From Actinomycetota bacterium (GTDB lineage Bacteria; Actinomycetota; UBA4738; HRBIN12), in contig JAXLTF010000013.1 in assembly GCA_046330185.1 (NCBI GenBank), positions 16,568 through 80,567 of the forward strand: 64,000 nucleotides of DNA. The letters are read 5' to 3'. The stretch's first letter is position 1; the number at the start of each line of letters is the position of its first letter. The translations under genes and the position numbers were made by a program. Below are positions 24,605 through 39,252 of this stretch, in pieces. The notes under the pieces were generated by a model, which was not told the DNA's origin, searched no databases, and saw only the letters and a list, made by a program, of their open reading frames with translations.

Positions 24605-26128
24605 TCAGCGCACGATGCGCAGGTCCGTCCCGGCCAGCACGTCGTACCCGTCGTCCGCCAGCAGGTAGACGCGGTAGCGGCCGGGCCGCAACGGCCACGG
24701 GCCCTCGCTCGCCGCGTCCAGCCGTTCCGCCCCCTGGATCGAAGCGTCCGTGTAGAACCACGTCAGGTACTGGTCGATGTTCGGGTCGGCGCCTCGCCGG
24801 TACACGCCGATCCAGTCCCATCGCTGGCCGGGCGCGTTCGCCCAGCGGACCACGATCGGGCGCCCGGTCCGAACGACGTCGTGCGCGAGCGTCACGACCG
24901 GCCCCTGACCGGGCGCGGCCAGCCAGAACCGCGAGCGCGACAGCACCGTCGTCGGCGTCCGCAGCGCGACCCGATAAGCCCCCGGCGCCAGGTCATCGGT
25001 CGGCACGTCGACGGTCCCGTCCTCGACCGCCCCGGTCGGGACGCTGACGAGCGGCGCGTCGTCGCCCGGGCGGGTCACGACCACCGACGCGTCGCTCCCC
25101 GCCGGGGCGTGGAACACGAGCCCCATCGGGACGCCGGTCTCGCCGAGCCGACGCTCGGGCGCGACGAAGGTCGGCGGCGTCCCGGGATCGACCTCCACGG
25201 TCGACACGACGCCGCGGTGGTCCGTCGGCCACGGGTCGATCGCGATGTCGACGCCGGGCCCTCCGGGCTCGCCGACCACCAGGCTCTCGAGGGTCCGCAC
25301 CGCTCCCGCCGCGTACACGAAGTCGATCCGGTCGCGCGGCGCGTTCGGGCCGGGGTTCCAGCCCTCGACCTTCTGCCGGCCGCTCGGCCACGTGATCCCC
25401 TCGTCCGCGACGGGATCGGGGTTTGCGTCGCGGTACGTGTCGCGGAACCCCGATCGCTCGACGAAAGCGCTGACGGGCCAGTGGACCGGGTAGCGGACCT
25501 GCGGCCTGAGACCGACCGTCGCGGCGGTCCAGTCCTGGTGCGAGGGCGCGTTGAAGTCCCCAAGCAGGAACGTGGGGATGCCCGCGTCCGCGAGCCCTGC
25601 GAGGGCCCGCACCGAGGGTCGGACGGCGGGCACGCGGACGCGCCGTTCGATCTCGAGGATCTCCGAACGGGGAGCCCCGCGCAGGATCAGGTTCGGGCTG
25701 TAGGGGCCCGCGGGCAGGTGGACGTTGCCGATCGCCACCACCCGGCCCGGTGCGATCTGCACGAACAGGTACAGGCCGTCGCCGCCGGGCGGGTCGATCA
25801 GCGGGTAGCGCGAGACGACCTGGAGCCGGGCGTCGTAGTGGTACCCGAGCGCCTCGGCGAGCCTGCGCATGTTGCCCCAGCTCTCCTCGATCGCCACCAC
25901 GTCAGCGTCCGCCGCCTGGATCGCCTCGACGACGCTCTCGAACCTGATGAGGGTGCCGCCGTACTCGATGTTGAACTCCATCACCCGCAGCGTGACGGGG
26001 GCGGCCCGCTCCGGCCTGCCGGATGCGGACATGGCCGCGTCCGCGGTGCCCGCCACGGAAAGCGACACGCCCACCAGGCAGAGGGCGATCGCGAGGAGCG
26101 CCGGGTTCCTGGACAGCCTGCGCGACAT
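24605..26128 (-). CDS. secreted endonuclease/exonuclease/phosphatase (EEP) family protein with a C-terminal beta-sandwich region
   Basis: The ATG at 26128 follows a GGGAGGGAG ribosome-binding site. There is a signal peptide 'MSRRLSRNPALLAIALCLVGVSLSVAGTADA'. EEP motifs are 'LRVMEFNIEYGG', 'DADVVAIEE', 'LLGDFNAP' and 'DRIDFVY...TDHRGVV'. The 822-aa track ORF is an over-extension. Confidence 0.75.
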   Translation of the reverse strand: MSRRLSRNPALLAIALCLVGVSLSVAGTADAAMSASGRPERAAPVTLRVMEFNIEYGGTLIRFESVVEAIQAADADVVAIEESWGNMRRLAEALGYHYDARLQVVSRYPLIDPPGGDGLYLFVQIAPGRVVAIGNVHLPAGPYSPNLILRGAPRSEILEIERRVRVPAVRPSVRALAGLADAGIPTFLLGDFNAPSHQDWTAATVGLRPQVRYPVHWPVSAFVERSGFRDTYRDANPDPVADEGITWPSGRQKVEGWNPGPNAPRDRIDFVYAAGAVRTLESLVVGEPGGPGVDIAIDPWPTDHRGVVSTVEVDPGTPPTFVAPERRLGETGVPMGLVFHAPAGSDASVVVTRPGDDAPLVSVPTGAVEDGTVDVPTDDLAPGAYRVALRTPTTVLSRSRFWLAAPGQGPVVTLAHDVVRTGRPIVVRWANAPGQRWDWIGVYRRGADPNIDQYLTWFYTDASIQGAERLDAASEGPWPLRPGRYRVYLLADDGYDVLAGTDLRIVR

Positions 26129-26224
26129 CGTCTCCCTCCCGTCTGCTGAGCGGCCCGCTCCGCCCGCGCGGCCGGACGAGCCGCCCCGCGCGCGCGGGCA
26201 GCCTATAGCGTCGACGGGCACGGG

Positions 26225-26254
26225 TTGACGGGTCGGCGGTCCTTCGAGAATACT
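26225..26254 (+). promoter_or_regulatory. putative housekeeping-sigma promoter of the transketolase operon (TTGACG-N18-AATACT)
   Basis: -35 TTGACG is at 26225-26230 and a -10-like AATACT at 26249-26254. The extended -35 context GTTGACGGGT(C)GGCG recurs at 36265-36279. Confidence 0.35.
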
Positions 26255-26265
26255 GCCGCTCGTCA

Positions 26266-26286
26266 GTGAGCAGGTTATCTGCTCAC
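26266..26286. promoter_or_regulatory. perfect 8-5-8 palindromic operator GTGAGCAG-GTTAT-CTGCTCAC (site 1)
   Basis: Read directly. It lies between the putative promoter and the transketolase start. It shares the motif GCAGGTTATC / GTGAGCAGG with sites at 30069, 34818 and 36284. Confidence 0.65.
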
Positions 26287-26301
26287 CTTCTGACCGAGGG
26301 G

Positions 26302-27133
26302 GTGACCCACGGAGCTGGGAGCGGTATCCGAGCGAACGAGGTCGACCGACCTGGCCAAGCGGATCCGCCGCAGCGTGATCCGCATGGCGGCCGGCAAGGG
26401 CGAGGGATACGTCGGGCAGGGTCTGGACGCGGCGGACATCCTGGCCGTGCTCTTCGGCTCCGAGATGCGCTACGACCCCCTCGATCGGTCTCCGAGCACC
26501 GACCGCCTGATCTTCTCCGCCGGGCACTACTCGATCGGGCTCTGGGCCGCGCTGGCCGAGACCGGGCACCTCGAAGGCTACGACCTCGGGTCGTACGGGG
26601 CGGACGGCGCGACGCTGATCATGTCCACGCACGAGGGCCACCCGCCGCCGATCGAGCTGACCGGGGGGTCCCTCGCCCACGGGCTGGGGGTCGCGGCCGG
26701 CCTGGCGCTCGGGTACCGGATGAAGGGCCACGAGGCACGGATCTTCGCGTTCACGACCGACGGGGAGGTCCAGGAGGGCTCGACCTGGGAGGCCGCGATG
26801 TTCGCGGGATCTCAGCGGCTGGGCAACCTCGTGAACGTCGTGGACGTCAATCGCGTCCAGGCGGACGGCGACCTCGTGCTCGAGATCGAGCCGCATGCGG
26901 ACAAGTGGCGCGCGTTCGGCTGGTGGGCACAGGACGTGGACGGGAACGATGTCGGCGCGTTGCTGGCGGCGTTCGCCCGCGCTCGTGAGGTGACGGACCG
27001 TCCCAAGGCCGTCATCGCGCGGACGACGCTCGGGTTCGGCGTGCCGATGATCATGGAACGCGAGCGGAACCATTTCGTCCGGGTGGGCGACGACGAGTGG
27101 GACGAGGTCGCCAGGCAGCTCGAGGCCTCATGA
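26302..27133 (+). CDS. transketolase, N-terminal (ThDP-binding) subunit; a 1-nt indel follows the probable start
   Basis: 'GEGYVGQGLDAADILAVLF', 'SAGHYSIGLWAAL' and 'GSLAHGLGVAAGLAL...FTTDGEVQEGSTWEAAMFA' match split-transketolase N subunits. The conserved N-terminal 'TELGAVSERTRSTDLAKRIRRSVIRM' comes into frame with the GTG at 26302 only if the CCC run at 26306-26308 is CC. The start is uncertain because the ribosome-binding site is too close. Confidence 0.75.
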
Positions 27134-28107
27134 CGAACGTCTCGACGACGCCGGCGGGGGTCGACCCGGTCGCCCTGGCGAAGTCGGGGCCGGTCGGTCC
27201 GGCCCTGCTCGAGATCGGCGAGCGCCGCGCCGACGTCGTCGCCCTCTCCGCCGATGTGGCGGGCGTCACGGGGCTCACGCCGTTCTCCCAGGCCTTCCCG
27301 GACCGGTTCGTCAACGTCGGCATGGCCGAGGAGAACCTGATCGCCGTGGCGGTCGGGCTCTCGAAGGCGGGCTTCACGCCGGTCGCCACGACGTTCGCCG
27401 TGTTCGCGTCGCGCCGGGCGCTCGACCTGATCGCGATCCAGTGCGCGCTCAACCGAGCCAACGTCAAGATCGTCGCCGCCCTGCCGGGCATCTACTCGAC
27501 GTTCGGTCCCACGCATCAGGGGATCGACGATCTCGCCCACATGCGCGCGCTCCCCAACATGACCGTGATCGACCCCTGCGACAACGCCGAGATGGCCGAG
27601 GCTCTGGCGGCGACGGTCGAGCTCGAGGGACCGGTCTACCTGCGCCAGCTGCTCGGCCGCGAGACGGCCGACGTGGACCGGGCCGGTCACGCGTTCCGGA
27701 TCGGACCGGCGCAGCTGATCCGCGACGGCGGCGACGTCGGGATCGTGACGAGCGGCATCATGGTCCGGAGGTCGCTCGACGCCGCACGGGCGCTCGCGGA
27801 TCGCGGCATCGAGGCGGCGGTCCTGAAGGTCTCGACCCTCAAGCCGTTCGACGGCGAGGCCGTCCTCGAGCTGGCTCGCGGTGTCGGCTCGCTCGTCACC
27901 GCCGAGAACCACTCCGTGATCGGCGGCCTCTTCTCGGCCGTGTCCGAGGTGCTCGCGCGCGCCGGGACCGGCGTGCCGGTTCGACCCGTGGGCGTGCGAG
28001 ACGAGTTCTGCTCGTTCGGGTCCAACGCCTACGTGGCCGAGCGCCACGGGCTCACTGCCGACGCCGTCGTGAACGCGGTCGAGGACGCGATCCGGACGCG
28101 CGGGTAG
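27130..28107 (+). CDS. transketolase, C-terminal (pyrimidine-binding) subunit
   Basis: 'FPDRFVNVGMAEENLIAVAVGLS', 'GPTHQGIDDLAHMRALPNMTVIDPCD' and 'VTAENHSVIGGL'. The ATG overlaps the upstream stop (ATGA). Confidence 0.85.
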   Translation: MTNVSTTPAGVDPVALAKSGPVGPALLEIGERRADVVALSADVAGVTGLTPFSQAFPDRFVNVGMAEENLIAVAVGLSKAGFTPVATTFAVFASRRALDLIAIQCALNRANVKIVAALPGIYSTFGPTHQGIDDLAHMRALPNMTVIDPCDNAEMAEALAATVELEGPVYLRQLLGRETADVDRAGHAFRIGPAQLIRDGGDVGIVTSGIMVRRSLDAARALADRGIEAAVLKVSTLKPFDGEAVLELARGVGSLVTAENHSVIGGLFSAVSEVLARAGTGVPVRPVGVRDEFCSFGSNAYVAERHGLTADAVVNAVEDAIRTRG

Positions 28108-28121
28108 AACCCCGATCGGCC

Positions 28122-29114
28122 TCAGGCCCTGGCGACGACCGAGGCGACGATGGCGTCCGACCTTGGCAGGTACGCGTCCTCGAGCGGCGGGCTGAACGGC
28201 GTCGGGACGTCCGGGGAGGCCACCCTCCACAGCTCGTCCAGCTCACCCCAGCACGTCTCGACGATCGCCGCCATGACCTCCGACGCCCAACCGCCCGTCC
28301 GCGGACCCTCCTCGACCACGACCACCCGGCCGGTCTTCACGGCCGAAGCCGCGAGGGTCTCGGTGTCCATCGGACGGAGGCTCCGAAGATCGATCACCTC
28401 GGCGTCGACGCCGTGCTCCCGGAGCAGCACCTCGGCCGCCTCGAGCGCATCCCCCACGCCCCGCATCGCCGCGACGACCGTGAGATCTGCGCCGGACCGC
28501 GCGACGGATGCGCCGCCGAGGGGCATCTGCTCGTCGCTCCATCGAGGACCCTTCGACGAGTAGAGCATCTTGTGCTCCATGAAGACCACCGGGTGCTCGT
28601 CGAGGATGGCCGCCCGCAGCAGGCCGTACGCCGACGCCGGATCGCTCGGCGCCACGATCTTCAACCCCGGAACCCCGAGCAACCACGAAGCCGGCACCTG
28701 CGAGTGCATGGCCCCCATCCTCGCGCCGGCGCCGACGGCGCAACGGACGACCATCGGCACGGTGCCCTGTCCCGACGAGACGAACGCGTACTTGGCCGCC
28801 TGGTTGATCAGGGCGTCCAGCGCGAGCGGCAGGAAGTCCGCGAACATGATCTCGACGACCGGCCTGGAGCCGGTGACCGCGGCTCCGAAGCCCGCCCCAG
28901 CGAGCGCCATCTCCGAGATGGCCGTATCGATCACGCGACGCGCCCCGAACCGGTCGGCGAGACCCCTCGTGACCTGGAACACGCCCCCCGCCGCGCCGAC
29001 GTCCTCTCCCAGCAGGATCACCGCCGGGTCCTCCTCCATCGCGTCGCTCAGCGCGGCGTGGAGCGCCTCGCGAACCGAGACGAGCTCGCCCATCCCGCTC
29101 AGGGCCGCCCCCAC
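28122..29114 (-). CDS. ThDP-dependent 2-oxoacid/acetoin dehydrogenase E1 component, beta subunit
   Basis: 'DPAVILLGEDVG..GGVFQVTRGLADRFG..RVIDTAISE' and 'VVVVEEGPRTGGWASEV' match E1-beta. Confidence 0.85.
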   Translation of the reverse strand: MGAALSGMGELVSVREALHAALSDAMEEDPAVILLGEDVGAAGGVFQVTRGLADRFGARRVIDTAISEMALAGAGFGAAVTGSRPVVEIMFADFLPLALDALINQAAKYAFVSSGQGTVPMVVRCAVGAGARMGAMHSQVPASWLLGVPGLKIVAPSDPASAYGLLRAAILDEHPVVFMEHKMLYSSKGPRWSDEQMPLGGASVARSGADLTVVAAMRGVGDALEAAEVLLREHGVDAEVIDLRSLRPMDTETLAASAVKTGRVVVVEEGPRTGGWASEVMAAIVETCWGELDELWRVASPDVPTPFSPPLEDAYLPRSDAIVASVVARA

Positions 29115-30058
29115 GATCCGGGGGGCACGGGGTAGGGATCCTCGAAGGCCGCGCGGACGGCCTCATCGATCTCCGCCTGGACGCCCGCCTCGACCGCATC
29201 CAGCTCGCCCGCAACCGCACCCTCGTCGATGAGTCGAGCGCGTTCCTGCGCGACCGGATCTCGCGCGCGCCACGATGCCACCTCGTCGTCCGGCTGGACC
29301 GGGATCGGATCGGCCCGGCTGTGCGGCACGAACCGATAGGTCTCGGCCTCCACGAACGCGGGGGGACCGCCGGACCTGATGCGCCCGAGCAGCGTCGTCG
29401 CCAGCCCGCGGACCGCGCGCACATCCATGCCGTCCACCCGGTGCGTGTCGATGCCGAACGCCTCGGCGCGGGCGCGGATCGTCCCGGCCGTCACCACCCC
29501 CGTGCGCGTGTACTCGCTGTACAGGTTGTTCTCGCAGACGTACAGGACGGGCAGCGAAGCGGTCTTCGCCAGGTTGAGGCATTCCAGGAAGTACCCCTGG
29601 TTCACGGCGCCGTCCCCGAAGAACGCGATCGCCGCCGCGGAGCGATCCCGAAGGGAGATGGCCGCTCCCGTCGCGGCGGCGATGCTGCCCCCCACGATCC
29701 CGAACGACCCCAGCAGCCGATGCTGGCGCGCCACGATGTTCATCGAGCCCGCGAGGCCGCCGCAGACCCCCGTGCGTCGGCCGAGCATCTCGGCGACGAG
29801 TGCCCGCGGAGGCACGCCGCGCGCCAGAGCATGGCCGTGGCCCCGGAACGTGCACGCCACCCAGTCGTCGGGTCCCACGGCCACCCCCACACCGACGCTC
29901 ACCGCCTCCTGACCGGTGGCCAGGTGAACGGCCCCCTCCAGCCCCGCGGAGAGCTGGAGCCGGCGGATCTCCTCCTCGAAGCGGCGAGCCATCACGAGCC
30001 GATCGAACAGGTCGAGGGTGGGTTCCACGCGAACCGGCACGGGGTCGGATGGTAGCAT
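29099..30058 (-). CDS. ThDP-dependent 2-oxoacid/acetoin dehydrogenase E1 component, alpha subunit
   Basis: 'RRFEEEIRRLQ', 'TFRGHGHALARG' and 'AFFGDGAVNQGYFLECLNLAKTASLPVLYVCENNLYSEYT' (ThDP motif). It overlaps the beta-subunit gene by 16 nt. No E2 or E3 gene is in the window. Confidence 0.85.
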   Translation of the reverse strand: MLPSDPVPVRVEPTLDLFDRLVMARRFEEEIRRLQLSAGLEGAVHLATGQEAVSVGVGVAVGPDDWVACTFRGHGHALARGVPPRALVAEMLGRRTGVCGGLAGSMNIVARQHRLLGSFGIVGGSIAAATGAAISLRDRSAAAIAFFGDGAVNQGYFLECLNLAKTASLPVLYVCENNLYSEYTRTGVVTAGTIRARAEAFGIDTHRVDGMDVRAVRGLATTLLGRIRSGGPPAFVEAETYRFVPHSRADPIPVQPDDEVASWRARDPVAQERARLIDEGAVAGELDAVEAGVQAEIDEAVRAAFEDPYPVPPGSWGRP

Positions 30059-30068
30059 CCGCCTCAGG

Positions 30069-30084
30069 TCAGCAGGTTAGCTGA
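30069..30084. promoter_or_regulatory. operator-like palindrome TCAGCAGGTTAGCTGA (site 2) in the 45-bp divergent E1-alpha/VOC intergenic region
   Basis: Read directly. It contains GCAGGTTAGC, which matches GCAGGTTATC of sites 1 and 3 at 9 of 10 positions. The outer arms TCAGC/GCTGA are complementary. Confidence 0.5.
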
Positions 30085-30103
30085 AGAGTCTGGAGGGCGA
30101 ACC

Positions 30104-30571
30104 GTGGCACGGGTCACCGGCGTGGACCACTTCGGCGGCACGGTAAGCGACATCGACGCTTCGTTGCGCTTCTGGCGTGATCTGCTGGGGCTCGAGGTGG
30201 TCGGGCGAGGGGTCATCGAATGGGAGCACATCGACCGGCTCGTGGCACTGCGCGACACGAAGATCGAATGGGTGGAGCTCCGCGTGCCCGGGGGAACCGC
30301 CGTCGAGCTCATGCGGTATCACCGCCCGACGGGCGCCCCCGTGCCGGTCGGGCAGGAGAACGAACCGGGTCGCTCGCACCTGTCGTTGCTCGTCGACGAC
30401 CTAGTTGCGACGCTTGCCGAGCTGCGCGCCGCAGGCGTCCGGTCGCGCACGGAGGAGGCGGTGGCGATGGAGCGGGGAGCGTACACCGGAGGGAAGGGCG
30501 CATACGTCTTCGACCCCGACGGGATCCAGATCGAGCTCATCGAGCGCGCCAGGCCGGACGCCCGAGGCTGA
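30104..30571 (+). CDS. VOC-family (glyoxalase/bleomycin-resistance/dioxygenase) protein
   Basis: 'VDHFGGTVSDIDASLRFWRDLLGLEVV' ... 'SHLSLLVDDLVATLAELRAAGV' ... 'YVFDPDGIQIELIE' forms paired beta-alpha-beta-beta-beta modules. A GGAGGG ribosome-binding site precedes the GTG. Confidence 0.75.
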   Translation: MARVTGVDHFGGTVSDIDASLRFWRDLLGLEVVGRGVIEWEHIDRLVALRDTKIEWVELRVPGGTAVELMRYHRPTGAPVPVGQENEPGRSHLSLLVDDLVATLAELRAAGVRSRTEEAVAMERGAYTGGKGAYVFDPDGIQIELIERARPDARG

Positions 30572-30586
30572 GGAGGACGAGCCAGG

Positions 30587-31303
30587 ATGGAAGATCCTCC
30601 CCCGACCCTGAAGATCGGCCAGGCTCCTCGGCAGAAGCTCGCCGAGACCGTCGCCCAGCAGATCCTGTCGGCGGTCCACGATCTCCCCGCGGGAACGCGC
30701 CTGCCTTCCGAGCGCGAGCTGACCCAGCAGCTCGGCTGCGGCCGTTCGACGGTCAGGGAGGCGCTCAACGGGCTGGCGATGATCGGCGTGGTCGAGATCC
30801 GGCATGGCCAGGGCGTCTTCGTGACCGAGCCGCCGCCGATCCCGCTCGACGACGCCACCGGCGAGCCCAAGGTCATCACGCCCGAGCTGCGCGAGGCGCG
30901 CCGGATCGTCGAGGTCGAGCTGGCGCGCCTCGCGGCGGAACGACACACGCCCGAGGATCTCGCGGCGATGCAGGAGGTCCTCGACCGGCACCGCGCGCGC
31001 ATGACCGACCTCGAGCGGCCCGTCGTCGAGGCGTCCGAGTTCCACCTGCTCGTCGCCGATGCCGCGCGCAACCGCGTGCTGGCGGGCGTCGTGCGCCCCT
31101 TCTTCCGGCTCGCGTTCGAGCTGGGGCCGCAGCTCTACCAGACCACCGAGGGCTACGCGGCGTGGGAGCTCGACCAACACACGAGGATCCGCGAGGCGAT
31201 CGCGTCCGGCGACGGCGAGCTGGCCCGTCTGCGGATGCTGGAGCACGTCACGTCGATGGACCCGCACTACCGGGACGATCGTCCCAGCTCGAGCACCTCG
31301 TAG
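30587..31303 (+). CDS. GntR-family transcriptional regulator, FadR (FCD) subfamily
   Basis: The winged-HTH motif is 'LPSERELTQQLGCGRSTVREALNGLAMIGVVEIRHGQGVFV'. The all-helical C-terminal FCD-type domain contains 'EFHLLVADAARN' and 'HTRIREAIASGD'. Confidence 0.85.
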   Translation: MEDPPPTLKIGQAPRQKLAETVAQQILSAVHDLPAGTRLPSERELTQQLGCGRSTVREALNGLAMIGVVEIRHGQGVFVTEPPPIPLDDATGEPKVITPELREARRIVEVELARLAAERHTPEDLAAMQEVLDRHRARMTDLERPVVEASEFHLLVADAARNRVLAGVVRPFFRLAFELGPQLYQTTEGYAAWELDQHTRIREAIASGDGELARLRMLEHVTSMDPHYRDDRPSSSTS

Positions 31304-32949
31304 GCGCCCAGCGTTCGGTCCGCCTCGAGGATCCCACCGACACGGACGTGCTGCTCGTCCGCCGTCAGGTTGACCAGCACCGGGTCCTGCAACTCGGTGG
31401 CGATCACCCGGACTCGGCGCGGCGCCGAGGAGGCCACCGATCGCAGACGACCGCCGGCACGAGCGGTCAGCAGTCCGATCGCGCGCTCCAGCCCGGCCGA
31501 GCGAAGGACCGTGCGGTCCAGCGCCTCGTGGAACGTGATCGACGCCGCTCCCCCTTCGGCGAGCGCGGCGGCCGACCCGATCGTCCAGGCGGCGCCGAAC
31601 GGATCCAGGGACCGCTCGTCGATCGGGCCATCCCCCGAGGGACCGTGCGGCGCGAGGGTCACGGGCGACACGACCACCGGCACCCCGTCCCATCGCCGGC
31701 TGAGCTGTCGCACCACCTGCGTCTGGACCTCGAGGGTCTCCACCATCCTCACCGCGTCGACGTCGTGGACCTGCGGGGTGATCGCCAGGGCGAGCACGTC
31801 GAGTCCTCCGGGGTCGGGCACGCTGCGGTTCAGCTCCGAGAAGTGCGATGCCGTGCCGCCCCCCACGACGAGGCCATCGAGGGCGGCTCCCCGGACGCCG
31901 GAGACGAACGCTCCACCCGCGGCCTCGCCGTTCCTCCGCAGGATCAGCAGCCGCGCCACGGGAAGCCCTCGGAGCGCATCGAGCCGTCCCAGGGGATCCG
32001 GCCCGTCGTCATCGACCAGGAGGGCCACCTCGAGCGGCAGGCCGCAGTCCCCGACGGTCGGACGAACGTCCCGGGCCGCCCCCGGGCCGTCCAGGACCAG
32101 CCGCAGGTGGCCGGGGTCGAGCGCGCGCACGCGCTCGGGATCGGACGGCCCTGTCGGCGCCGACAGCCCGACCGTTGGCGCGGTGCCGGCGGCGACGGGA
32201 CCGATCGTCACGGTCACCGCCGACCGGTCGCCCTCATCCTCCTCGACATCCGCGGGCGGCGGCCCGGCCACCCGGAGGCTCAGCCGTTGCCGGCATCGCT
32301 CCCCACGACGGATCGTCCGGGGAGCGGACGCCTCCAGCGGGGTCGGGTACGTCTTGAAGGAGGCGTCCGTCCAGTTCCGTTGATCCTCCAGCTCGAAGCC
32401 GCGAGGCTCTCCCTCGAACGAGAAGGTGGCCTCCACCCCCGATCCGGGGAACGTCACCTCCAGGCGGGTGAACGCCGGGATCAGGGCCCGGTAGTGGCCC
32501 TGCACGAGCGGCTGCGGGGCGATCGCCTCTTCGAAGACGCCGTTCGTCGCCGGTCCCACCCCCGAGGCCGTGAAGCGCGCCCCGACGTACGCCTCCCACG
32601 GGTGGAGCACGCACACGCCGATCCGGCGGGCGACGAAGTCCTCGAGGGCCTCGCCCTCCATCTCGCACTCGACCGACCCTGCCCCCATCCGCACGGCTAG
32701 CCGGCAGAGGAACCGGTCCCCGCCGAACACCGATGCGATCCGGAGCTCGGCGGTGCTCCCCGATCCGGCGTCGTCCACCTGGACGATGCGCTGGCCGAGG
32801 GTCCCCCAGCCCTCGTCGCGCACGGTGACATGGATCGACGAGGCGATCGGCTGGGACCCCCAACGCACGTCGGTCAGGGCCGTGCCCAGCCGTTCCGCCG
32901 AGAACCCGCCCGCCCTCACGGGGTGCCGTGCCGAGCGAGCACGCTCCAC
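31267..32949 (-). CDS. hypothetical protein, 560 aa, no family recognised
   Basis: A long ORF with ordinary composition, overlapping the upstream PLP-enzyme gene by 34 nt (probably one operon). Notable strings are 'FELEDQRNWTDASFKTYPTPL', 'GGGTASHFSELNR' and 'ITPQVHDVDAVRMVETLEVQ'. The exact start is uncertain. Confidence 0.55.
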   Translation of the reverse strand: MERARSARHPVRAGGFSAERLGTALTDVRWGSQPIASSIHVTVRDEGWGTLGQRIVQVDDAGSGSTAELRIASVFGGDRFLCRLAVRMGAGSVECEMEGEALEDFVARRIGVCVLHPWEAYVGARFTASGVGPATNGVFEEAIAPQPLVQGHYRALIPAFTRLEVTFPGSGVEATFSFEGEPRGFELEDQRNWTDASFKTYPTPLEASAPRTIRRGERCRQRLSLRVAGPPPADVEEDEGDRSAVTVTIGPVAAGTAPTVGLSAPTGPSDPERVRALDPGHLRLVLDGPGAARDVRPTVGDCGLPLEVALLVDDDGPDPLGRLDALRGLPVARLLILRRNGEAAGGAFVSGVRGAALDGLVVGGGTASHFSELNRSVPDPGGLDVLALAITPQVHDVDAVRMVETLEVQTQVVRQLSRRWDGVPVVVSPVTLAPHGPSGDGPIDERSLDPFGAAWTIGSAAALAEGGAASITFHEALDRTVLRSAGLERAIGLLTARAGGRLRSVASSAPRRVRVIATELQDPVLVNLTADEQHVRVGGILEADRTLGAYEVLELGRSSR

Positions 32950-34037
32950 ACGTCCACGATCCGGTCCGCATCCACGACGATGTAGCTCCCGAACAGGTTG
33001 ACGGTGGTCGGGGCGTATCCGGGAACCATGCGCAGCCGGTCACCGATCGAGTAGGGGGCGCCGCCCGCGAACCACAGCCCGACGTGCTCCTCGTTCACGA
33101 AGGCGACCTCCGCTCCCGGCGGGGGGGCGATCGGGCGCAGGCCGACGTCGATCGACTTGCGGCCGGCGTCCACCACGAGCAACCCGCCGTGGCGACTGAG
33201 GACTGTGGTGACTACCTCGAGCGCGAACCCGAAGCCCTCGACCACGGGCGCGTGGAACCCGTCCATCAGGACGTACGAACCCGCCTGGACCTCGGTCACC
33301 ACGGGCCAGGCGCCGGTGATCTCGAACGTGCCCGTCGCGCCGGCGGACACGACGTCGACCGTGAGACCTGCGCCGCGGCAGGCCCCGACCGCCGCCGACA
33401 GCCGTTCCATGCTCGCGTTCACGCCCGACGTCCGTATCGCCGGATCGGGTTCGCTCGCGCAGTGGCCCTCGTACCCGTAGAGGCCCTCGAAGCGGACGCC
33501 GGCGGTGCTCGCCGCTCGTCGCGCCAGCTCGACCACCGCATCGTCCGACCGCGCCCCGCCCCGACCGAGCCCCACGTCGACCTCCACCAGGACGCCGATC
33601 TCGAGGCGGCGGCCGCGGGCGAGCTCTCCCCATGACGCGAGGTTGTCGAGGTCATCGACGGCGACGCAGACCCGTGCCCGCTCCGCAGCGGCGAGTAGCT
33701 CCACCATCGAGGGGGGGCTCACGACCTCGTTCGCCACGAACACGTCCCCGATGCCCGCCTCGATCATGGCCGTGGCCTCGCGGACGGTCGCGGCGGTAAC
33801 GCCGATCGCGCCCGCCTCGACCTGCATGCGGGCCACCTCGGCGCACTTGTGGGCCTTGATGTGCGGACGGAGATCGGCGGGGAGCGAGGCGATCCGCTCC
33901 GCCATCGTGGCAACGTTGCCGCGCACGACCCCCAGGTCGAGGACCAGCGCGGGGGTGGTGATCTCGTCCATCCACCGGCCGGACGGCCCCGGCCGAGGAT
34001 CTCCCGGCGGTCGAGCGGCTCCAGCGGCGGACGCCAT
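32916..34037 (-). CDS. PLP-dependent D-threonine-aldolase/D-serine-dehydratase-like enzyme (alanine-racemase-N fold, DSD1/D-TA family)
   Basis: 'TPALVLDLGVVRGNVATMAERI...LRPHIKAHKCAEVARMQVEAGAIGVTAATVREA' (the PLP lysine in 'HIKAHK') and the C-terminal 'VGDRLRMVPGYAPTTVNL' are typical of the family. Confidence 0.75.
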   Translation of the reverse strand: MASAAGAARPPGDPRPGPSGRWMDEITTPALVLDLGVVRGNVATMAERIASLPADLRPHIKAHKCAEVARMQVEAGAIGVTAATVREATAMIEAGIGDVFVANEVVSPPSMVELLAAAERARVCVAVDDLDNLASWGELARGRRLEIGVLVEVDVGLGRGGARSDDAVVELARRAASTAGVRFEGLYGYEGHCASEPDPAIRTSGVNASMERLSAAVGACRGAGLTVDVVSAGATGTFEITGAWPVVTEVQAGSYVLMDGFHAPVVEGFGFALEVVTTVLSRHGGLLVVDAGRKSIDVGLRPIAPPPGAEVAFVNEEHVGLWFAGGAPYSIGDRLRMVPGYAPTTVNLFGSYIVVDADRIVDVWSVLARHGTP

Positions 34038-34050
34038 CCCGGGCCGCCGG

Positions 34051-34794
34051 CTACAGCTCCGGCCCGACGGGGGTGATCATCAGCTCGCTGACCGCCACCC
34101 CGGCGGGCTGGGCGAGGGCGAACCCGACCGCCCTTGCCACGTCGTCGACGCTGAGCGCCGCGAACCGCTCCAGCTCGCCGAGGCCTTCGTCGGTCTCGTG
34201 AAGGAGCGGGGTGTCGACCATCCCGGGTTCGATCATCGTCACGCGGACGTCGTGCGGAAGGGCCTCCTTCCGCAGCGCCCAGCCGAGTCCCACGACCCCC
34301 CACTTGGTCGCGATGTAGACGGGCTCGCCCACCCAGGTCTGCCGGCCGGCGATCGACGCCATCAGGACGATCTGCCCGCTGCGCCGCGCCTTCATGTGCG
34401 GGAACACGGCCCGCACGGTGTGCAGCACCCCCAGCAGGTTCGTCTCGACGACCCGACGCCACAGCTCGGGGTCGCCCTCGTCCAGCGACGAGTAGCTCCC
34501 GATCCCCGCGTTGGCCACCGTGAAGTCGATCACGCCGAACGCGCGCAGGCATGCGTCGGCCAGATCCCGCACGCTCGGCCACTCGCGAACGTCGGTGACG
34601 CAGGTCTCCACCTCGCCGCCCGCGTCCCGCAGGCGAGCCGCGGTGGCCGACAGACGTCCCGGCTCCGAATCCGAGAGCATCACCCGTGCGCCGTGGGCGG
34701 CCAGGAGCGCGGCGCAGGCCTCGCCGATCCCTCGCCCGGCGCCGGTCACGATCCCGGCCTTCCCGCTCAGGGCCCCGAAGCCGTCCTCGGCCAT
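34051..34794 (-). CDS. short-chain dehydrogenase/reductase (SDR)
   Basis: The ATG at 34794 follows a GGAGGGTGGAGG ribosome-binding site. Motifs are 'GKAGIVTGAGRGIGEA' (TGxxxGxG), 'NAGIG' and 'YIATKWGVVGL' (YxxxK). Confidence 0.85.
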   Translation of the reverse strand: MAEDGFGALSGKAGIVTGAGRGIGEACAALLAAHGARVMLSDSEPGRLSATAARLRDAGGEVETCVTDVREWPSVRDLADACLRAFGVIDFTVANAGIGSYSSLDEGDPELWRRVVETNLLGVLHTVRAVFPHMKARRSGQIVLMASIAGRQTWVGEPVYIATKWGVVGLGWALRKEALPHDVRVTMIEPGMVDTPLLHETDEGLGELERFAALSVDDVARAVGFALAQPAGVAVSELMITPVGPEL

Positions 34795-34817
34795 CCTCCA
34801 CCCTCCGTAGATGTATG

Positions 34818-34847
34818 GTGAGCAGGCCAGATGATAACAGTGGGCTC
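34818..34847. promoter_or_regulatory. operator-like element (site 4) in the divergent SDR / GS-like promoter region
   Basis: GTGAGCAGG (34818-34826) is identical to the left half-site of site 1. GATAAC at 34833-34838 gives GTTATCAT on the minus strand, as in site 3. On the minus strand TATCAT lies ~37 nt upstream of the SDR ATG. Confidence 0.45.
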
Positions 34848-34908
34848 GGAGCGGCGGAACCCGGGATCCGGGTGGTATCCTCCGGCCCCGTTCAAGGGGG
34901 ATGGAGCG

Positions 34909-36207
34909 GTGGAGCTGGCGGACACGGAACGGGTCCTGACCTCGGTAGATACGGTCGAATGCTGCTTCCCGGACACCTGGGGCATCTTCGTGGGCCGCCG
35001 GATGCCGACCGAGGCGTTCCGCCGCGCGATCGAGCGGGGCCTGAGCATGCCGAACGCACCCTTCGCCTGGAACGTGCTCGGCGACATCGACGCCACCCCG
35101 TTCGCGAGCGCCGACACGGGCTTCCCGAACATCCACGTCGCCCCCGACCTCACGACCCTACGCCTGGCACCGTGGGCCGACCGCACGGCGTTCTGCCTCA
35201 TGGACACGTTCGTGGCGCCCGAGGGCGACCCCAACCCCATGGACTCCCGCGGCATCCTGCGCAGGGCCGTCGGGGCACTGTCCGCCCAGGGTTACGAGGC
35301 ATGGACGGCCCCGGAGCTCGAGTTCTACCTGTGCACCGAGCTCGAGCGGCCCGCGTTCGACGACCACCGATGCTGGTCCATGACGCGCGGGGCGGAGTTC
35401 GAGCCCGTGCTGGGCGAGATCAGGGCCACCCTCCTCGCCGCGGGCGTGCCGGTCGAATCGAGCCAGACCGAGGGCGGACCTGGCCAGTTCGAGATCAACG
35501 TGTCGCCGTCCGCGCCCATCCAGGCCGCCGATCACGCCGCGATCCTCAGGTACGTCGTCAAGCTGATCGCGCGGCGCCACGGCCTGCTGGCCACCTTCAT
35601 GCCGATGCCGTTCAACGACGCGGAGGGCAGCGGCCTGCATATCCATAACAGCCTGCGTCACACCGATCTTCAGGAGAACGTCTTCGCCGTCGACGACGGA
35701 GTGTTCCGGGCCTACCTCGCGGGCACGCTCGCCCACATGATCGACACGACCGCGGTGAACCTCCCCAACGTCAACGCCTACCGCCGCCTGCGCGACTACA
35801 CGTTCGCGCCGAACCGCGTCTGCTGGGGCCAGGACAACCGGACGGTCGCCATCCGGATCCCGTCGGGCGACCCGGACGCTCGCCGGCTGGAGATCCGCAC
35901 GGCCTCCGCGGATGCCAACCCCTACCTCGTACTCGCCGGCATCGTCGCCGCCGGGTCCGACGGGGTCGCCCGGTCGCTCGACCCTCCGCCCCCCGTCGAG
36001 GGCGACGCCTACCTGGACGGTGAGCTCGAGCGGGTCCCGGCGACGCTGGAGGCGGCCCTCGACGCCTTCGCCGGGTCGGCCTTCTGCAAGGAGGTCTTCG
36101 GGGAGGTGTTCGTCGAGACGTTCACGCTGCTCGGCCGGCGCGAGGCCGCCGCCTTCGCCGCCCACGTGACGGACTGGGAGCGCGATCGCTACCTGGAACC
36201 GTCCTGA
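34909..36207 (+). CDS. glutamine-synthetase-family gamma-glutamyl-amine ligase (PuuA/GlnA3-4-like)
   Basis: 'GPGQFEINVSPSAPIQAADHAAILRYVVKLIARRHGLLATFMPMPFNDAEGSGLHIHNSL' and 'NRTVAIRIPSGDPDARRLEIRTASADANPYLVLAGIV' match the GS catalytic domain. A GTG at 34909 follows an AAGGGGGA ribosome-binding site. The track ORF begins at 34831. Confidence 0.8.
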   Translation: MELADTERVLTSVDTVECCFPDTWGIFVGRRMPTEAFRRAIERGLSMPNAPFAWNVLGDIDATPFASADTGFPNIHVAPDLTTLRLAPWADRTAFCLMDTFVAPEGDPNPMDSRGILRRAVGALSAQGYEAWTAPELEFYLCTELERPAFDDHRCWSMTRGAEFEPVLGEIRATLLAAGVPVESSQTEGGPGQFEINVSPSAPIQAADHAAILRYVVKLIARRHGLLATFMPMPFNDAEGSGLHIHNSLRHTDLQENVFAVDDGVFRAYLAGTLAHMIDTTAVNLPNVNAYRRLRDYTFAPNRVCWGQDNRTVAIRIPSGDPDARRLEIRTASADANPYLVLAGIVAAGSDGVARSLDPPPPVEGDAYLDGELERVPATLEAALDAFAGSAFCKEVFGEVFVETFTLLGRREAAAFAAHVTDWERDRYLEPS

Positions 36208-36230
36208 GCGGCCGAGGCGCCCGTATCCAT

Positions 36231-36260
36231 AGGAAGACCGTCTCGAGGAAGACCGTCTCG
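36231..36260. repeat. perfect 15-bp tandem direct repeat (aggaagaccgtctcg x2), each unit containing the palindrome AGAC-c-GTCT
   Basis: Read directly at 36231-36245 and 36246-36260. The repeat ends 5 nt upstream of the TTGACG hexamer at 36266. Confidence 0.85.
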
Positions 36261-36265
36261 CTGCG

Positions 36266-36299
36266 TTGACGGGTGGCGTGGTAGGCAGGTTATCATGCC
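36266..36299 (+). promoter_or_regulatory. putative promoter (TTGACG-N19-TATCAT) overlapped by operator site 3 (GGCAGGTTATCATGCC)
   Basis: The -35 context GTTGACGGGTGGCG parallels 26224-26239. GGCAGGTTATCATGCC (36284-36299) has complementary GGCA/TGCC arms, and its downstream flank CACCTGACC parallels CACCTTCTGACC after site 1. Confidence 0.5.
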
Positions 36300-36351
36300 A
36301 CCTGACCACCGCGGCGGTCGCGGATGGTGCGCCGATCGGGGAGGGGGAGAG

Positions 36352-37548
36352 ATGGGCGACGCGCAGGATCGCGAGCGCAGGTTCGTGCTCGATCGCAGGC
36401 GGTTCCTGGGACTCACGGGAGGCGCGGCCGCGGCGGCCTTCCTCGCCTCGTGCGGGCTCTCGGGCGACGACGGCGCCACGACCACCGGTCCCAGCCCCAC
36501 GGGGTCCACGGGCGCTGCCTCCCCGAGCCCGCTCCCGCCGGTGGGCGGCCCCTTCAACTACTACACCTGGGAGGGCTACGACACCGCCGGCGACTTCACG
36601 AAGTGGTTCAAGGACAACGGGATCGAGCTGAACACGAAGTACATCTCCGGCCCCGAGGAGGTGCCGACCGTCCTCAAGGGCCCCGGCGGTGACCAGTGGG
36701 ACGCCTCGTACGGCGACAACGTCGTGCTGCTCTACTTCAAGGAGCTGGGCATCCTCACGCCGCTGACCGAGGAACAGGTGCCCGGTCTCGCCGGGCTGAT
36801 GCCCGCCTTCCAGGTGCCTCCGTTCAAGAACGAGGACGGCACGTACAACGCCGTCCCCTGGACCTGGGGGTTCTCCGGGGTGACGTACCGCACCGACCGG
36901 GTGCCGGAGCCGACCAGCTGGCACGACCTGCTGGATCCGAAGTACGAGGGGCGGGTCTCGACGATCGACAGCGCGCTGAACAACGTCGCGCTCGGATCGC
37001 TCGCGGTGGGGATCGACCCCGACACGCTCACCTCGGACCAGCTGAACGGCGAGGTGAAGGAGTACCTCACGTCCCTGGTCGGCCAGATCAAGGCGCTGGC
37101 GCCCACGATCGGAGACTCGATCTCGCTCCTGCTCTCGGGCGACGTCGACTACATGGTCGTCGGGCTGGCGTTCATGGACTCGGTCACGGCGGACGAGGGC
37201 ATCCCCACCGAGACGATCGTCCCGTCGGAGGGCGCGATCGGCTGGAACGACTCGGTGTTCCTCACGCCCACCGCGCCGAACCCGCAGAACGCGCTGGCGT
37301 TCATGAACCACCTGGTCGATCCCGCGGCGAACGCGGAGGCGAACAGCAGCATCCTCCAGGGGCCCGGCGTCCAGGCGGCGATCCCGCTCCTGTCGAAGGA
37401 GGCGGCGGCGCAGTATCCCTTCGACGACATCGACAACTACCTCTCCAACACGCTGACGTTCAACCAGGGGTTCCCGCACGAGCCCGACGGCGATCGCGCC
37501 ACTTACGACGAGGTCCTCGCCCTGTGGGAGGAGGTCAAGGGATCCTGA
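36352..37548 (+). CDS. PotD/PotF-family periplasmic substrate-binding lipoprotein with a Tat-type signal
   Basis: The ATG follows a GGGAGGGGGAGA ribosome-binding site. 'RRFVLDRRRFLGLTGGAAAAAFLASCG' contains twin arginines and a lipobox. The mature part ('NYYTWEGYD...VPWTWGFSGVTYR...') resembles polyamine/amine-binding proteins. Confidence 0.75.
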   Translation: MGDAQDRERRFVLDRRRFLGLTGGAAAAAFLASCGLSGDDGATTTGPSPTGSTGAASPSPLPPVGGPFNYYTWEGYDTAGDFTKWFKDNGIELNTKYISGPEEVPTVLKGPGGDQWDASYGDNVVLLYFKELGILTPLTEEQVPGLAGLMPAFQVPPFKNEDGTYNAVPWTWGFSGVTYRTDRVPEPTSWHDLLDPKYEGRVSTIDSALNNVALGSLAVGIDPDTLTSDQLNGEVKEYLTSLVGQIKALAPTIGDSISLLLSGDVDYMVVGLAFMDSVTADEGIPTETIVPSEGAIGWNDSVFLTPTAPNPQNALAFMNHLVDPAANAEANSSILQGPGVQAAIPLLSKEAAAQYPFDDIDNYLSNTLTFNQGFPHEPDGDRATYDEVLALWEEVKGS

Positions 37549-37567
37549 ACCGGATGCCGACCTAGGC

Positions 37568-38434
37568 GTGTCGCTCTCCCGGCGCCTGGCCGCGTTCCTG
37601 CTCACCCCGCTCGGGGCACTGCTCCTGTTGGCCGTCCTGGTCCCGACGGCCATGTTGTTCGCGTTCTCGTTCTTCCACCTCCGGCTGCTGGAGATCGTGC
37701 CCGGCGCGAGCCTCGACAACTACGAGCGGGTCGTCACGACGTCGTTGTACCGGCGTTACGCGCTGAACACGCTGCTGATCGCCGGCCCAACCGCGCTCCT
37801 GTCGACGATCGGGGGATACGTGCTGGCGTACTTCCTCGTCTTCCGCGCCCGCCGCTCGCGCGCCGTGCTGCTGGTCGCGATCGTCATCGCCCTGATGGGG
37901 AGCTACCTCGCGTTGATCTACTCCTGGCGGACGCTCTCGGGCGAGAGCGGGATCTTCAACTCGCTGCTGCAGGCGCTGAACCTGACCGAACGGCCGCTCG
38001 GGATCCTGCTGTTCTCGCGCACCGCCGTCATCGTCGCGGAGGTGAACTTCTTCCTGCCGTTCACGACCCTGGTGCTGTTCTCGAGCCTGTCCTCGATCTC
38101 GCCGGAGCTCGAGCCGGCCGCGCGCGACCTGGGGGCATCCCGGTCCATGACGCTCCGCAGGATCCTCCTGCCGCTGTCCGGATCCGCGATCTTCGGAGCG
38201 CTGCTGTTCGTCTTCTTCCTGTCCGCGGGCGACTACATCACGCCGGTCTTCCTGGGAGGCATCGGGTCCAGCGCGATGATGGGCACCTTGATCGCTGACC
38301 AGCTCACGACCGGGCTGAACTACCCGCTCGGCGCAGCCATGGCGTTCGTGATGCTCGCGTGCTTCCTGGTCCTCGTCGTGCTGCTCAGGCTCGGTATGCG
38401 CGCCGGCGGATTGCTCCCGAGGCACACGGGATGA
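37568..38434 (+). CDS. ABC transporter permease (PotB-like)
   Basis: Six TM segments and the EAA-type loop 'ELEPAARDLGASRSMTLRRILLPL'. Confidence 0.8.
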   Translation: MSLSRRLAAFLLTPLGALLLLAVLVPTAMLFAFSFFHLRLLEIVPGASLDNYERVVTTSLYRRYALNTLLIAGPTALLSTIGGYVLAYFLVFRARRSRAVLLVAIVIALMGSYLALIYSWRTLSGESGIFNSLLQALNLTERPLGILLFSRTAVIVAEVNFFLPFTTLVLFSSLSSISPELEPAARDLGASRSMTLRRILLPLSGSAIFGALLFVFFLSAGDYITPVFLGGIGSSAMMGTLIADQLTTGLNYPLGAAMAFVMLACFLVLVVLLRLGMRAGGLLPRHTG

Positions 38435-39252
38435 CCCGGCGGCCGCATCTGCTGACGATCGTCGTGGCGGTGCTGATCGTCTTCATCTACCTGCCGCTCG
38501 TGGTCGTGGTCATGTACGGGCTGAACTCCGGATCCAACCTGAGCTGGCCCCCGCACGGCGTCTCCTTCAGGTGGTTCCGCTTCATCTTCGGCACGGCGCA
38601 GTTCCGATCGGGCCTTCGAACCAGCGCGATCGCGGCGACGGCGACCGCTCTGATCGCCGGAGCGATCGGGACCGCAGCGGCGTTCGCCTTCACCCGCCGC
38701 CCCTCCCGCGCGGCGGGCTGGCTCGAGAGCGGCTCGCGGCTGCCCGTGATGCTGCCGCCGCTGTTCATCGGGATCTCGCTCGTCGCCGCGATGAAGGCCT
38801 TCGCGATCGACCCATCGATGTACACGATCGTCGCCGGTCACGTGATCGTCACGACGCCGTTCGTGATCCTGATCGTCGGCGCGCGCCTGCGCCACTACGA
38901 CGTGGCGGTCGAGCAGGCGGCGAGGGACCTGGGGGCCCGGCCGTCGATGGTGCTGCGGAGGATCACGGCGCCCTTGATCGGCCCCTCGGTGGTCGGGGCC
39001 ATGATGATCGCGTTCGCGATCTCTTTCGATGAGGTCCTGATCACCAACTTCACGTCGGGCACGCAGGTGACCCTTCCCCTGTTCGTCCTGTCGCGGCTCC
39101 GCCGTACGATCGACCCGTCGATCAACGCGGTGGCCACCATCCTGCTGATCGTTCCCTGGATCGCGGTCGCCCTGTCCTTCGCGTTCCAGCGACGCCGCTC
39201 GTCCCGTCAGGCGGTCAGGGATCAGGCCGAGGCGCTGGCGAGGGTGGCATGA
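38431..39252 (+). CDS. ABC transporter permease (PotC-like)
   Basis: The ATG overlaps the upstream stop (ATGA). The N-terminus is 'MTRRPHLLTIVVAVLIVFIYLPLVVVVMYGLN' and the EAA loop is 'AVEQAARDLGARPSMVLRRITAPL'. Confidence 0.8.
   Translation: MTRRPHLLTIVVAVLIVFIYLPLVVVVMYGLNSGSNLSWPPHGVSFRWFRFIFGTAQFRSGLRTSAIAATATALIAGAIGTAAAFAFTRRPSRAAGWLESGSRLPVMLPPLFIGISLVAAMKAFAIDPSMYTIVAGHVIVTTPFVILIVGARLRHYDVAVEQAARDLGARPSMVLRRITAPLIGPSVVGAMMIAFAISFDEVLITNFTSGTQVTLPLFVLSRLRRTIDPSINAVATILLIVPWIAVALSFAFQRRRSSRQAVRDQAEALARVA

Follow-up and report, generated by a model that had tools for sequence, protein, structure and literature searches.

Predicted operators of a local FadR-type GntR regulon in an amine-catabolism-type gene island of an uncultured sludge actinobacterium

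In Corynebacterium glutamicum, the repressor LldR binds the operator TGGTCTGACCA at -4 to +13, hence across the transcription start, and a weaker adjacent site is bound by a second dimer (PMC2602784). The consensus of the FadR subfamily is TKGT-N(2-3)-ACMA, and operators of the GntR family commonly have further half-sites at 7-12 nt from their centre (PMC4494728). In Escherichia coli, NanR recognizes a (GGTATA)3 operator, on which three dimers bind the repeat array asymmetrically, cooperativity being mediated by a 32-residue N-terminal extension (PMC8012715). The EpuRI-GlnA4 system of Streptomyces coelicolor associates a repressor gene with the adjacent gene of a glutamine-synthetase-like (GS-like) gamma-glutamyl-amine synthetase, in an amine-utilisation locus induced by amines; the family and operator of EpuRI are not stated in that report (PMC6529630). 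Here, we analysed a stretch of 64,000 nt from contig JAXLTF010000013.1 of an Actinomycetota bacterium (hereafter the window), which contains a gene island of amine-catabolism type (26.3-40.4 kb, ~14 kb). Four related DNA elements, sites 1 to 4, lie at the promoters of this island, and they are probably the operators of a local regulon under a predicted repressor encoded in the island itself, the FadR-subfamily GntR protein (gntR, 30587-31303, plus strand).

Like LldR, the island regulator is an actinobacterial protein of FadR type with the features of a local repressor, and the operator motif of its family starts with the same TGGTCTGA. LldR is also its second-best named NCBIfam model, far below the cut-off (94.5 vs 311 bits): the island GntR is not an LldR equivalog, its targets are unrelated to lactate, and its GGT/ACC boxes are separated by 6 nt (site 4, homologues) or 9 nt (sites 1-3), whereas those of LldR are separated by 3. 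With E. coli FadR, it shares the GntR winged helix-turn-helix and all-helical FCD architecture as well as conserved counterparts of the base-contacting residues, but sequence likeness is limited to the DNA-binding domain. The sites resemble FadR-subfamily operators by their GGT/ACC boxes and by the weaker extra boxes flanking the main site, and differ from them by a wider box spacing and by the core CAGGTYATCTG of sites 1-3, which has no counterpart in the consensus. The top-scoring named NCBIfam model is NanR, again below cut-off (115.9 vs 260 bits). As in the NanR operator, boxes are repeated: sites 1-3 hold AGGTNANC boxes with an 8-bp period, e.g. AGGTCAGC then AGGTTATC. Unlike in the NanR operator, the boxes switch orientation (GGT GGT ACC ACC), and no GGTATA triple repeat was found in the four site regions. 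Moreover, residue 12 of the island GntR aligns with residue 26 of NanR, so that the protein has ~14 N-terminal residues fewer and the NanR cooperativity extension is incomplete. Finally, the EpuRI-GlnA4 locus is likened here by gene layout, not by homology: in both cases a repressor gene is found near a GS-like gene in an actinobacterial amine locus, but the present island adds thiamine pyrophosphate (TPP)-dependent enzymes, an aldolase-like gene and a PotABCD-like importer. String searches of the literature for the motifs returned unrelated primers only. As a circuit, this is a real, ordinary local regulon, previously undescribed, in which only the half-site spacing and the presence of two site subtypes are unusual.

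The four sites and the promoters they occupy

Site 1, GTGAGCAGGTTATCTGCTCAC (26266-26286), is a perfect 8-5-8 palindrome, or alternatively a 10-1-10 palindrome with one G.T mismatch. Site 2 is TCAGCAGGTTAGCTGA (30069-30084), site 3 is GGCAGGTTATCATGCC (36284-36299), and site 4 begins at 34818 with GTGAGCAGG and includes ATGATAAC (reverse complement GTTATCAT) at 34831-34838. All the strings quoted for these four elements in a preliminary description of the window were found again, base for base, at these coordinates. The same is true of the flanks that it reported as common to regions 1 and 3, namely GTTGACGGGT(C)GGCG upstream, at 26224-26238 and 36265-36278, and CACCTTCTGACC (26284-26295) versus CACCTGACC (36300-36308) downstream. 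The likeness among the sites exceeds chance. With at most one mismatch, GCAGGTTATC is present 4 times in the window versus 1.03 expected, a number reached by none of 100 shuffles; three of these matches are intergenic, and the fourth (16806, minus strand) is within an open reading frame of high third-position G+C. Local alignment of regions 1 and 3 gave a score of 15.4, for a null of 8.2 +/- 1.6 measured on other window tiles, and 15.4 was reached by 7 of 6334 window tiles and 4 of 2000 shuffles. The idea of a shared half-site held in part: the sites are related, but a single common half-site does not describe them, since the picture is more complex and site 4 represents another subtype. The most plausible reading of the string GTTATCAT, present in sites 3 and 4, is that of a -10 element (TATCAT).

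On a gene map built from third-position GC and Pfam, each site falls in a promoter-bearing intergenic region (26129-26374, 30059-30103, 34795-34908 and 36208-36351 for sites 1, 2, 4 and 3, respectively), as had been proposed, at the promoters of the island transcription units. These are a split transketolase-like pair (tktN-tktC, site 1), divergent E1 and VOC-gntR operons (site 2), an SDR-aldolase-560aa operon (site 4) and an ABC importer operon (site 3). The GntR/FCD gene is also, as stated earlier, the sole regulator gene among those of the island. A promoter scanner predicted only one sigma-70-like promoter between 26 and 37 kb, TTGACG-18-AATACT at 26225-26254 (plus strand), directly upstream of site 1; this is the tktN-tktC promoter, with its -35 TTGACG at 26225-26230, an 18-nt spacer, and its -10 AATACT at 26249-26254. 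All other promoter elements were read from conservation, in a comparative set of 95 loci (L numbers below) retrieved from genome and metagenome collections with the GntR protein as query.

The predicted site 1 operator spans 26264-26295 (plus strand), that is ~+4 to +35 from the predicted transcription start, around an invariant core AGCAGGTTATCTG at 26269-26281. It can be written as four 8-bp boxes, CAGTGAGC, AGGTTATC, TGCTCACC and TTCTGACC, forming GGT-N9-ACC plus an outer ACC. In 9 lineages, the core is preceded at 7-17 nt by a conserved -10, NATACT or TAGGCT, and such a varying distance is typical of a repressor operator, not of an activator site. For VOC-gntR, an extended -10 TGGTAGCAT (30050-30058, plus strand) overlaps the E1 alpha start codon; GGATGGTAGCATC is invariant there in the window, L001-3, L016 and L017, and L018 has GATGCTAGCATC. 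The predicted site 2 operator (30066-30089, plus strand; ~+1 to +25 of this promoter) lies in the 45-bp gap between E1 alpha and VOC; it consists of boxes AGGTCAGC, AGGTTAGC and TGAAGAGT and has the core AGCAGGTTAGCTG (30071-30083). On the opposite strand it contains TAACCT (30074-30079), which may serve the divergent E1 operon as -10. Site 4 belongs to a conserved block, GTAGATGTATGGTGAGCAGGCCAGATGATAACAG (34807-34840), whose family-type 16-mer on the minus strand, CTGGCCTGCTCACCAT (34815-34830), abuts a minus-strand extended -10 TGTTATCAT (hexamer TATCAT, 34831-34836). At site 3, the -35 TTGACG of the transporter operon (36266-36271, plus strand; TTGAC kept in L001-3, L023 and L027) is followed by the predicted operator (36279-36310, plus strand), with the -10 TATCAT inside it (36291-36296) and with boxes TGGTAGGC, AGGTTATC, ATGCCACC and TGACCACC arranged as GGT-N5-GGT-N9-ACC-N5-ACC. 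The starts predicted from these elements are near 26261 (plus), 30065 (plus), 34824 (minus), 34888 (plus) and 36303 (plus). Sites 1 and 2 therefore occupy ~+1 to +35, and at sites 3 and 4 there is overlap with both the -10 and the start; such positions fit repression and autoregulation.

Given this proximity, we considered whether the blocks might be nothing else than conserved promoter elements (-10, extended -10, discriminator, start region), alike through common architecture, with no dedicated regulator. TATCAT in sites 3 and 4 and TAACCT in site 2 are indeed plausible -10 hexamers, and intergenic DNA that is relatively AT-rich in a genome of ~72% G+C inflates promoter likeness. This explanation is nevertheless quite improbable: the site 1 core lies downstream of a conserved -10 at a distance varying from 7 to 17 nt, the conserved blocks (25-35 nt) are longer than promoter elements, and a CTGGTCTGMTCACC motif that matches site 4 is 22-fold enriched upstream of homologous regulator genes (see below).

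Conservation of the sites and their link to the regulator

The loci of the comparative set were grouped, by tblastn with the island proteins, into clades sharing 85%, ~70% and 55% GntR identity, and 43-53% homologues, which are many and lie on short contigs. Gene order in the 85% clade is that of the window. In the ~70% clade, tktN-tktC-VOC-gntR form a single operon headed by site 1; the E1 genes are absent, tktC abuts VOC, and site 2 is absent. In every locus of these two clades containing the corresponding region, each site appears as an invariant block amid unalignable intergenic DNA, and this invariance extends to all loci with a GntR orthologue of ~68% identity or more. The 13-nt core AGCAGGTYATCTG has 15 copies in the 95 loci, all upstream of tktN or VOC-gntR and on the gntR strand, and none elsewhere. 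For site 1, the core is present in 9/9 loci having the tktN upstream region, and the consensus of these nine loci is NATACT(-10)-N7..17-[GR]AGCAGGTYATCTG[CA][TC][CG]ACC[WT]TCTRAC. Site 2 reads GTCAGCAGGTTATCTGAACA in six loci, and the exact core AGCAGGTTATCTG is found in all six related loci with the region; the window copy has a T to G change at one position of this core. Site 3 is CAGGTTATCATGCCAC[CA]TGACCA in five loci (CAGGTTATCATGCCAC in 5/5 loci with the region), and site 4 is GGTGAGCRGRCCASATGATAAC in six loci (block in 6/6). Among the loci examined, the blocks of sites 3 and 4 occur at homologous positions only. Finally, sludge contigs from four independent metagenomes differ by six single-nucleotide polymorphisms over 26150-26450, none of them in 26224-26300, numbers too small for significance.

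As site 1 is probably transcribed, another possible function is that of a hairpin in the 5' leader RNA (8-bp stem, GUUAU loop), working for instance as an attenuator or a protein-binding leader, instead of a DNA operator. The palindrome is perfect in the window, and L033 displays a symmetric change, GTCAGCAG...CTGCTGAC. However, 5 of the 8 stem pairs are broken in 3 to 6 of 13 sequences, and pairing plus covariation are no better than in shuffles (observed value reached by 79 of 500). The conserved part is a 13-nt primary sequence with asymmetric arms, no Rfam match was found at E up to 1 over 24-42 kb, and sites 3 and 4 overlap -10 elements instead of lying in leaders. We thus regard a hairpin as highly improbable.

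The candidate repressor, a protein of 238 aa, has the two domains expected of its subfamily: PF00392 (GntR winged helix-turn-helix) at residues 19-79 (E = 6e-17, 61.5 bits for a cut-off of 27) and PF07729 (FCD, the C-terminal all-helical effector/oligomerisation domain) at residues 100-222 (E = 3e-22, 79.7 bits for a cut-off of 24.3). With phmmer, its residues 31-77 align to residues 23-69 of FadR, and R43, R53, R57, H73 and G74, invariant in four orthologues, are the counterparts of FadR R35, R45, R49, H65 and G66, which we take to be the residues making base contacts in FadR-DNA structures. Such conservation of the DNA-reading residues fits the GGT/ACC boxes present in all sites. Furthermore, gntR is always within an operon headed by one of the sites, site 2 in the window and the 85% clade, and site 1 in the ~70% clade. 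An operator conserved together with the regulator is therefore found at the regulator's own promoter, and the autoregulation of gntR suggested in the preliminary description is probable.

Upstream regions of the 43-53% homologues repeatedly contain CTGGTCTGATCACC or CTGGTCTGCTCACC. Allowing up to 2 mismatches within 200 nt upstream, CTGGTCTGATCACC was detected in 19 of 48 distant homologue loci, a 22-fold enrichment over the rest of those contigs. Site 4 matches the operator type CTGGTCTG(A/C)TCACC found upstream of these distant homologues, and its version in L001, L027 and L028, CATCTGGTCTGCTCACC, is the very 17-mer located upstream of the 50%-identical homologue of L073, the window copy being one base off. 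In the 55% clade, a palindrome CTGGTCAGGTGACC(A/G)G, also written CTGGTCAGGTGACCAG, stands directly before the TATCCT -10 of the VOC-gntR operon, and CTGACCWGACCAC occurs upstream of the GS-like gene.

A scan of the window for CTGGTC-N4-GACCAG with at most 2 mismatches returned matches in coding regions only, this rigid consensus being too strict. We thus used a weight matrix, built from 19 distinct homologue sites only, and scanned both strands of the window (~128,000 positions). The best position was site 4 (13.3 bits), followed by site 3 (13.0); site 2 took rank five (7.6), and site 1 ranks nine and ten. That five of the top ten positions lie within four predefined 30-bp sites is not due to chance; the argument comes from the location of the matches, not from their scores. 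Another, weak match (26137-26154, 7.4 bits), near the start of an exo/endo/phosphatase gene, does not rise above noise, and the relatives lack that gene. A matrix derived from operators of homologues of the island GntR thus picks out the four sites. This FadR-type protein, already singled out in the preliminary description, is the best candidate regulator.

The four sites are thus conserved, promoter-positioned DNA elements that co-occur with the regulator and resemble the operators found beside its homologues. From this, we infer physical binding, the sign of the regulation, its stoichiometry and the nature of the inducer as follows. When inducer is absent, GntR would bind the sites as one or more dimers and block RNA polymerase at the island promoters. 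Bound at site 1, it would repress the tktN-tktC promoter; at site 2, the back-to-back E1 and VOC-gntR promoters, hence its own synthesis; at site 4, the SDR-aldolase-560aa promoter, and possibly the GS-like gene too; and at site 3, the ABC-importer promoter. The pathway substrate or an intermediate would then bind the C-terminal FCD domain and release the repressor. If confirmed, this would give a defined operator and regulon to an uncharacterised GntR/FadR clade of uncultured wastewater and soil Actinomycetota, and would unite the importer, the gamma-glutamyl-amine-synthetase-like enzyme, the SDR, the pyridoxal phosphate (PLP) aldolase-like protein and the split TPP enzymes in one inducible catabolic pathway. 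The regulon would also be a handle for finding the substrate of this pathway. In X15, the only RNA run containing this sequence (13% of sampled words), only low-depth fragments and chimeric joints were seen over 24.5-41.5 kb, with no usable start or operon information.

Region 3 had been likened to region 1 with ~24 bp deleted. The sequence likeness and the gap are there, with 25 nt separating the shared parts in a MAFFT alignment, but the proposed duplicated module and deletion event do not hold, as both layouts are separately conserved. The 'extra' 25 nt of region 1 carry its own -10, whereas the -10 of region 3 lies inside the operator, and the extended likeness of the -35 flanks is not kept in all relatives. 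The resemblance of the two regions is real, but it lies in elements with a function, namely the -35 TTGAC, the core and the ACC boxes. Because both arrangements persist in lineages down to ~70% regulator identity, we rejected a recent duplication followed by deletion. Site 2 is the better candidate for a copy. It exists only in lineages with E1 alpha/beta (the window and the 85% clade), where these genes are inserted between tktC and VOC, and it has a 20-mer, ACAGGTCAGCAGGTTATCTG, in common with site 1 of L023; it may be a copy of site 1 acquired with the E1 insertion.

Two geometries among the predicted operators

Sites 1-3 display GGT-N9-ACC with the invariant core CAGGTYATCTG. Site 4 and the sites of the homologues display GGT-N6-ACC, with a best symmetry axis between CTGGTCTG and ATCACCNG, across which 57% of pairs are complementary. 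We tried to place all four sites in one register (8-5-8, 10-1-10, 6-4-6 or 8-bp boxes), and none of these explained every conserved base. An alternative reading with a 3-nt spacing, TGGTCTGATCA, suits some homologue sites, not site 4. The TKGT/ACMA palindrome with GT and AC 2-3 nt apart, typical of the FadR subfamily, was not found in the four sites, where boxes are 6 or 9 nt apart.

Several points weigh against the proposal that all four sites are operators of the island GntR. First, the box spacings of sites 1-3 (N9) and of site 4 and the family (N6) are 3 bp apart, so that one rigid dimer is not expected to fit both, and neither equals the 2-3 nt that typically separate GT and AC in the FadR subfamily (PMC4494728). 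Second, the sites score 6-13 bits with the matrix, no higher than the best value expected from random sequence (12.8 +/- 2.6). Third, the exclusivity of the core was established over the window and the 95 loci, which leaves room for a wider regulon of another factor. Finally, site 4 is ~45-65 nt upstream of the likely start of the GS-like gene, which it may or may not control.

The difference in spacing would also fit two regulators, GntR binding site 4 only, and the core AGCAGGTYATCTG of sites 1-3 being read by another, unlinked factor. Sites 1 and 2 do have low matrix scores (6-8 bits), and the core of sites 1-3 is absent from the 55% and 43-53% clades despite the same DNA-reading residues. 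Yet this core is confined to the island in the window and all loci compared, site 1 or site 2 heads the gntR operon in every lineage, and the island has no other conserved regulator gene. The family matrix, moreover, scores site 3 as high as site 4, and the L025 copy of site 1, CAGGTCATCTGACCAC, fits the 6-4-6 format of the family and bridges the two operator types. On balance, we find two regulators unlikely.

How the island GntR itself might accommodate all four sites is a matter for a more tentative proposal, which we hold to be possible though rather unlikely in this exact form: a single FadR-type repressor would read two geometries, a 16-bp GGT-N6-ACC palindrome (site 4 and the wider family) and a clade-specific array of four boxes of 8 bp, GGT-N5-GGT-N9-ACC-N5-ACC, with the invariant CAGGTYATCTG core (sites 1-3). 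If so, at least two dimers would assemble per operator, in a NanR-like manner but without the full N-terminal extension of NanR, and this GntR clade, widespread among Actinomycetota of soil and sludge, would have an operator class not described before. The non-canonical box spacing, if confirmed, would also be a data point on how flexibly FadR-type dimers read DNA.

The gene island and further observations

The sequence comes from wastewater or activated-sludge metagenomes; the host is an uncultured sludge actinobacterium, and the nearest genomes are metagenome-assembled genomes (MAGs) of uncultured Actinomycetes. In L001-L003, which are MAG contigs, several island genes are split into two to four tblastn segments, which suggests assembly frameshift errors, not real pseudogenes.

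The secreted exo/endo/phosphatase gene mentioned above (24605-26128, minus strand) is the 5' neighbour of the site 1 region. On the other side, the site 1 target operon consists of tktN (26375-27133, plus) and tktC (27097-28107, plus), the pair carrying the Pfam domains Transketolase_N, Transket_pyr and Transketolase_C. Homology of tktN extends upstream to ~26309, and no canonical in-frame start was seen upstream of GTG 26375, where an in-frame TGA is present at 26303. Another GTG, at 26302, has a good Shine-Dalgarno sequence (GAGGGGG) and is shifted by one base from the reading frame, and no indel was found in this start region among four independent metagenome assemblies. Next come E1 beta (28122-29114, minus) and E1 alpha (29099-30058, minus) of an enzyme resembling TPP-dependent 2-oxo-acid or acetoin dehydrogenases (Pfam E1_dh, Transket_pyr and Transketolase_C for the pair), in an operon divergent from site 2. 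The VOC/glyoxalase gene (30104-30571, plus; Pfam Glyoxalase) is the first gene of VOC-gntR. The operon assigned to site 4 (31267-34794) is headed by the SDR gene (34051-34794, minus), followed by a PLP aldolase/D-serine-dehydratase-like gene (32916-34037, minus) and, last, by the gene of a 560-aa protein (31267-32949, minus); this gene order is kept in all clades. The 560-aa protein is without Pfam domain, and has a weak N-terminal likeness to the D-apionate lactonase ApnL (1.5e-36, far below cut-off).

Between sites 4 and 3 lies the GS-like gene (34909-36207, plus), whose product has gamma-glutamylputrescine synthetase as nearest NCBIfam model, with a score below cut-off. Its probable promoter contains an extended -10 TGGTATCCT (34873-34881, plus). 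GGTG(G)TATCC is kept in L001-3, L027 and L028, the full TATCCTCCGG in L001, L027 and L028, and L023 has TGCTACCGT at the same place. In the window, a near-palindrome CCCGGGATCCGGG (34860-34872), specific to this sequence, directly precedes this conserved extended -10. Just upstream of the transporter-promoter -35, a 14-mer, GGAAGACCGTCTCG, is exactly duplicated in tandem with a period of 15 nt (36232-36260); the duplication is absent in L001-3, L023 and L027, and no further exact copies exist in the window. The importer operon controlled by site 3 in our proposal (36352-40391, plus) encodes a PotD-like binding protein, two permeases and an ATPase (Pfam SBP_bac_6, BPD_transp_1 twice, and ABC_tran with TOBE_2).

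Some relatives have additional components. In the 55% clade (L004, 14180-17925, and the equivalents in L005 and L048), a gene for an amino-acid/polyamine-type permease (~507 aa) is located between SDR and the GS-like gene. A second GntR paralogue, 33% identical, is flanked by the GS-like gene on one side and by an inverted tktC-tktN pair on the other, in an area with the motif CTGGTC-N4-GAYCRG and repeated TCTGACCA boxes. Among the 43-53% homologues, several loci (L058, L060, L069, L082, L087 and others) have two or three CTGGTCTGATCACC-type sites, one upstream of the regulator and the others 0.8-2.8 kb off at neighbouring operons, and local regulons with multiple sites seem typical of this clade. 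As to the pathway itself, the PLP aldolase of the island is BhcC-like and the importer PotABCD-like, and the substrate is possibly an amino-polyol or a hydroxylated amine.

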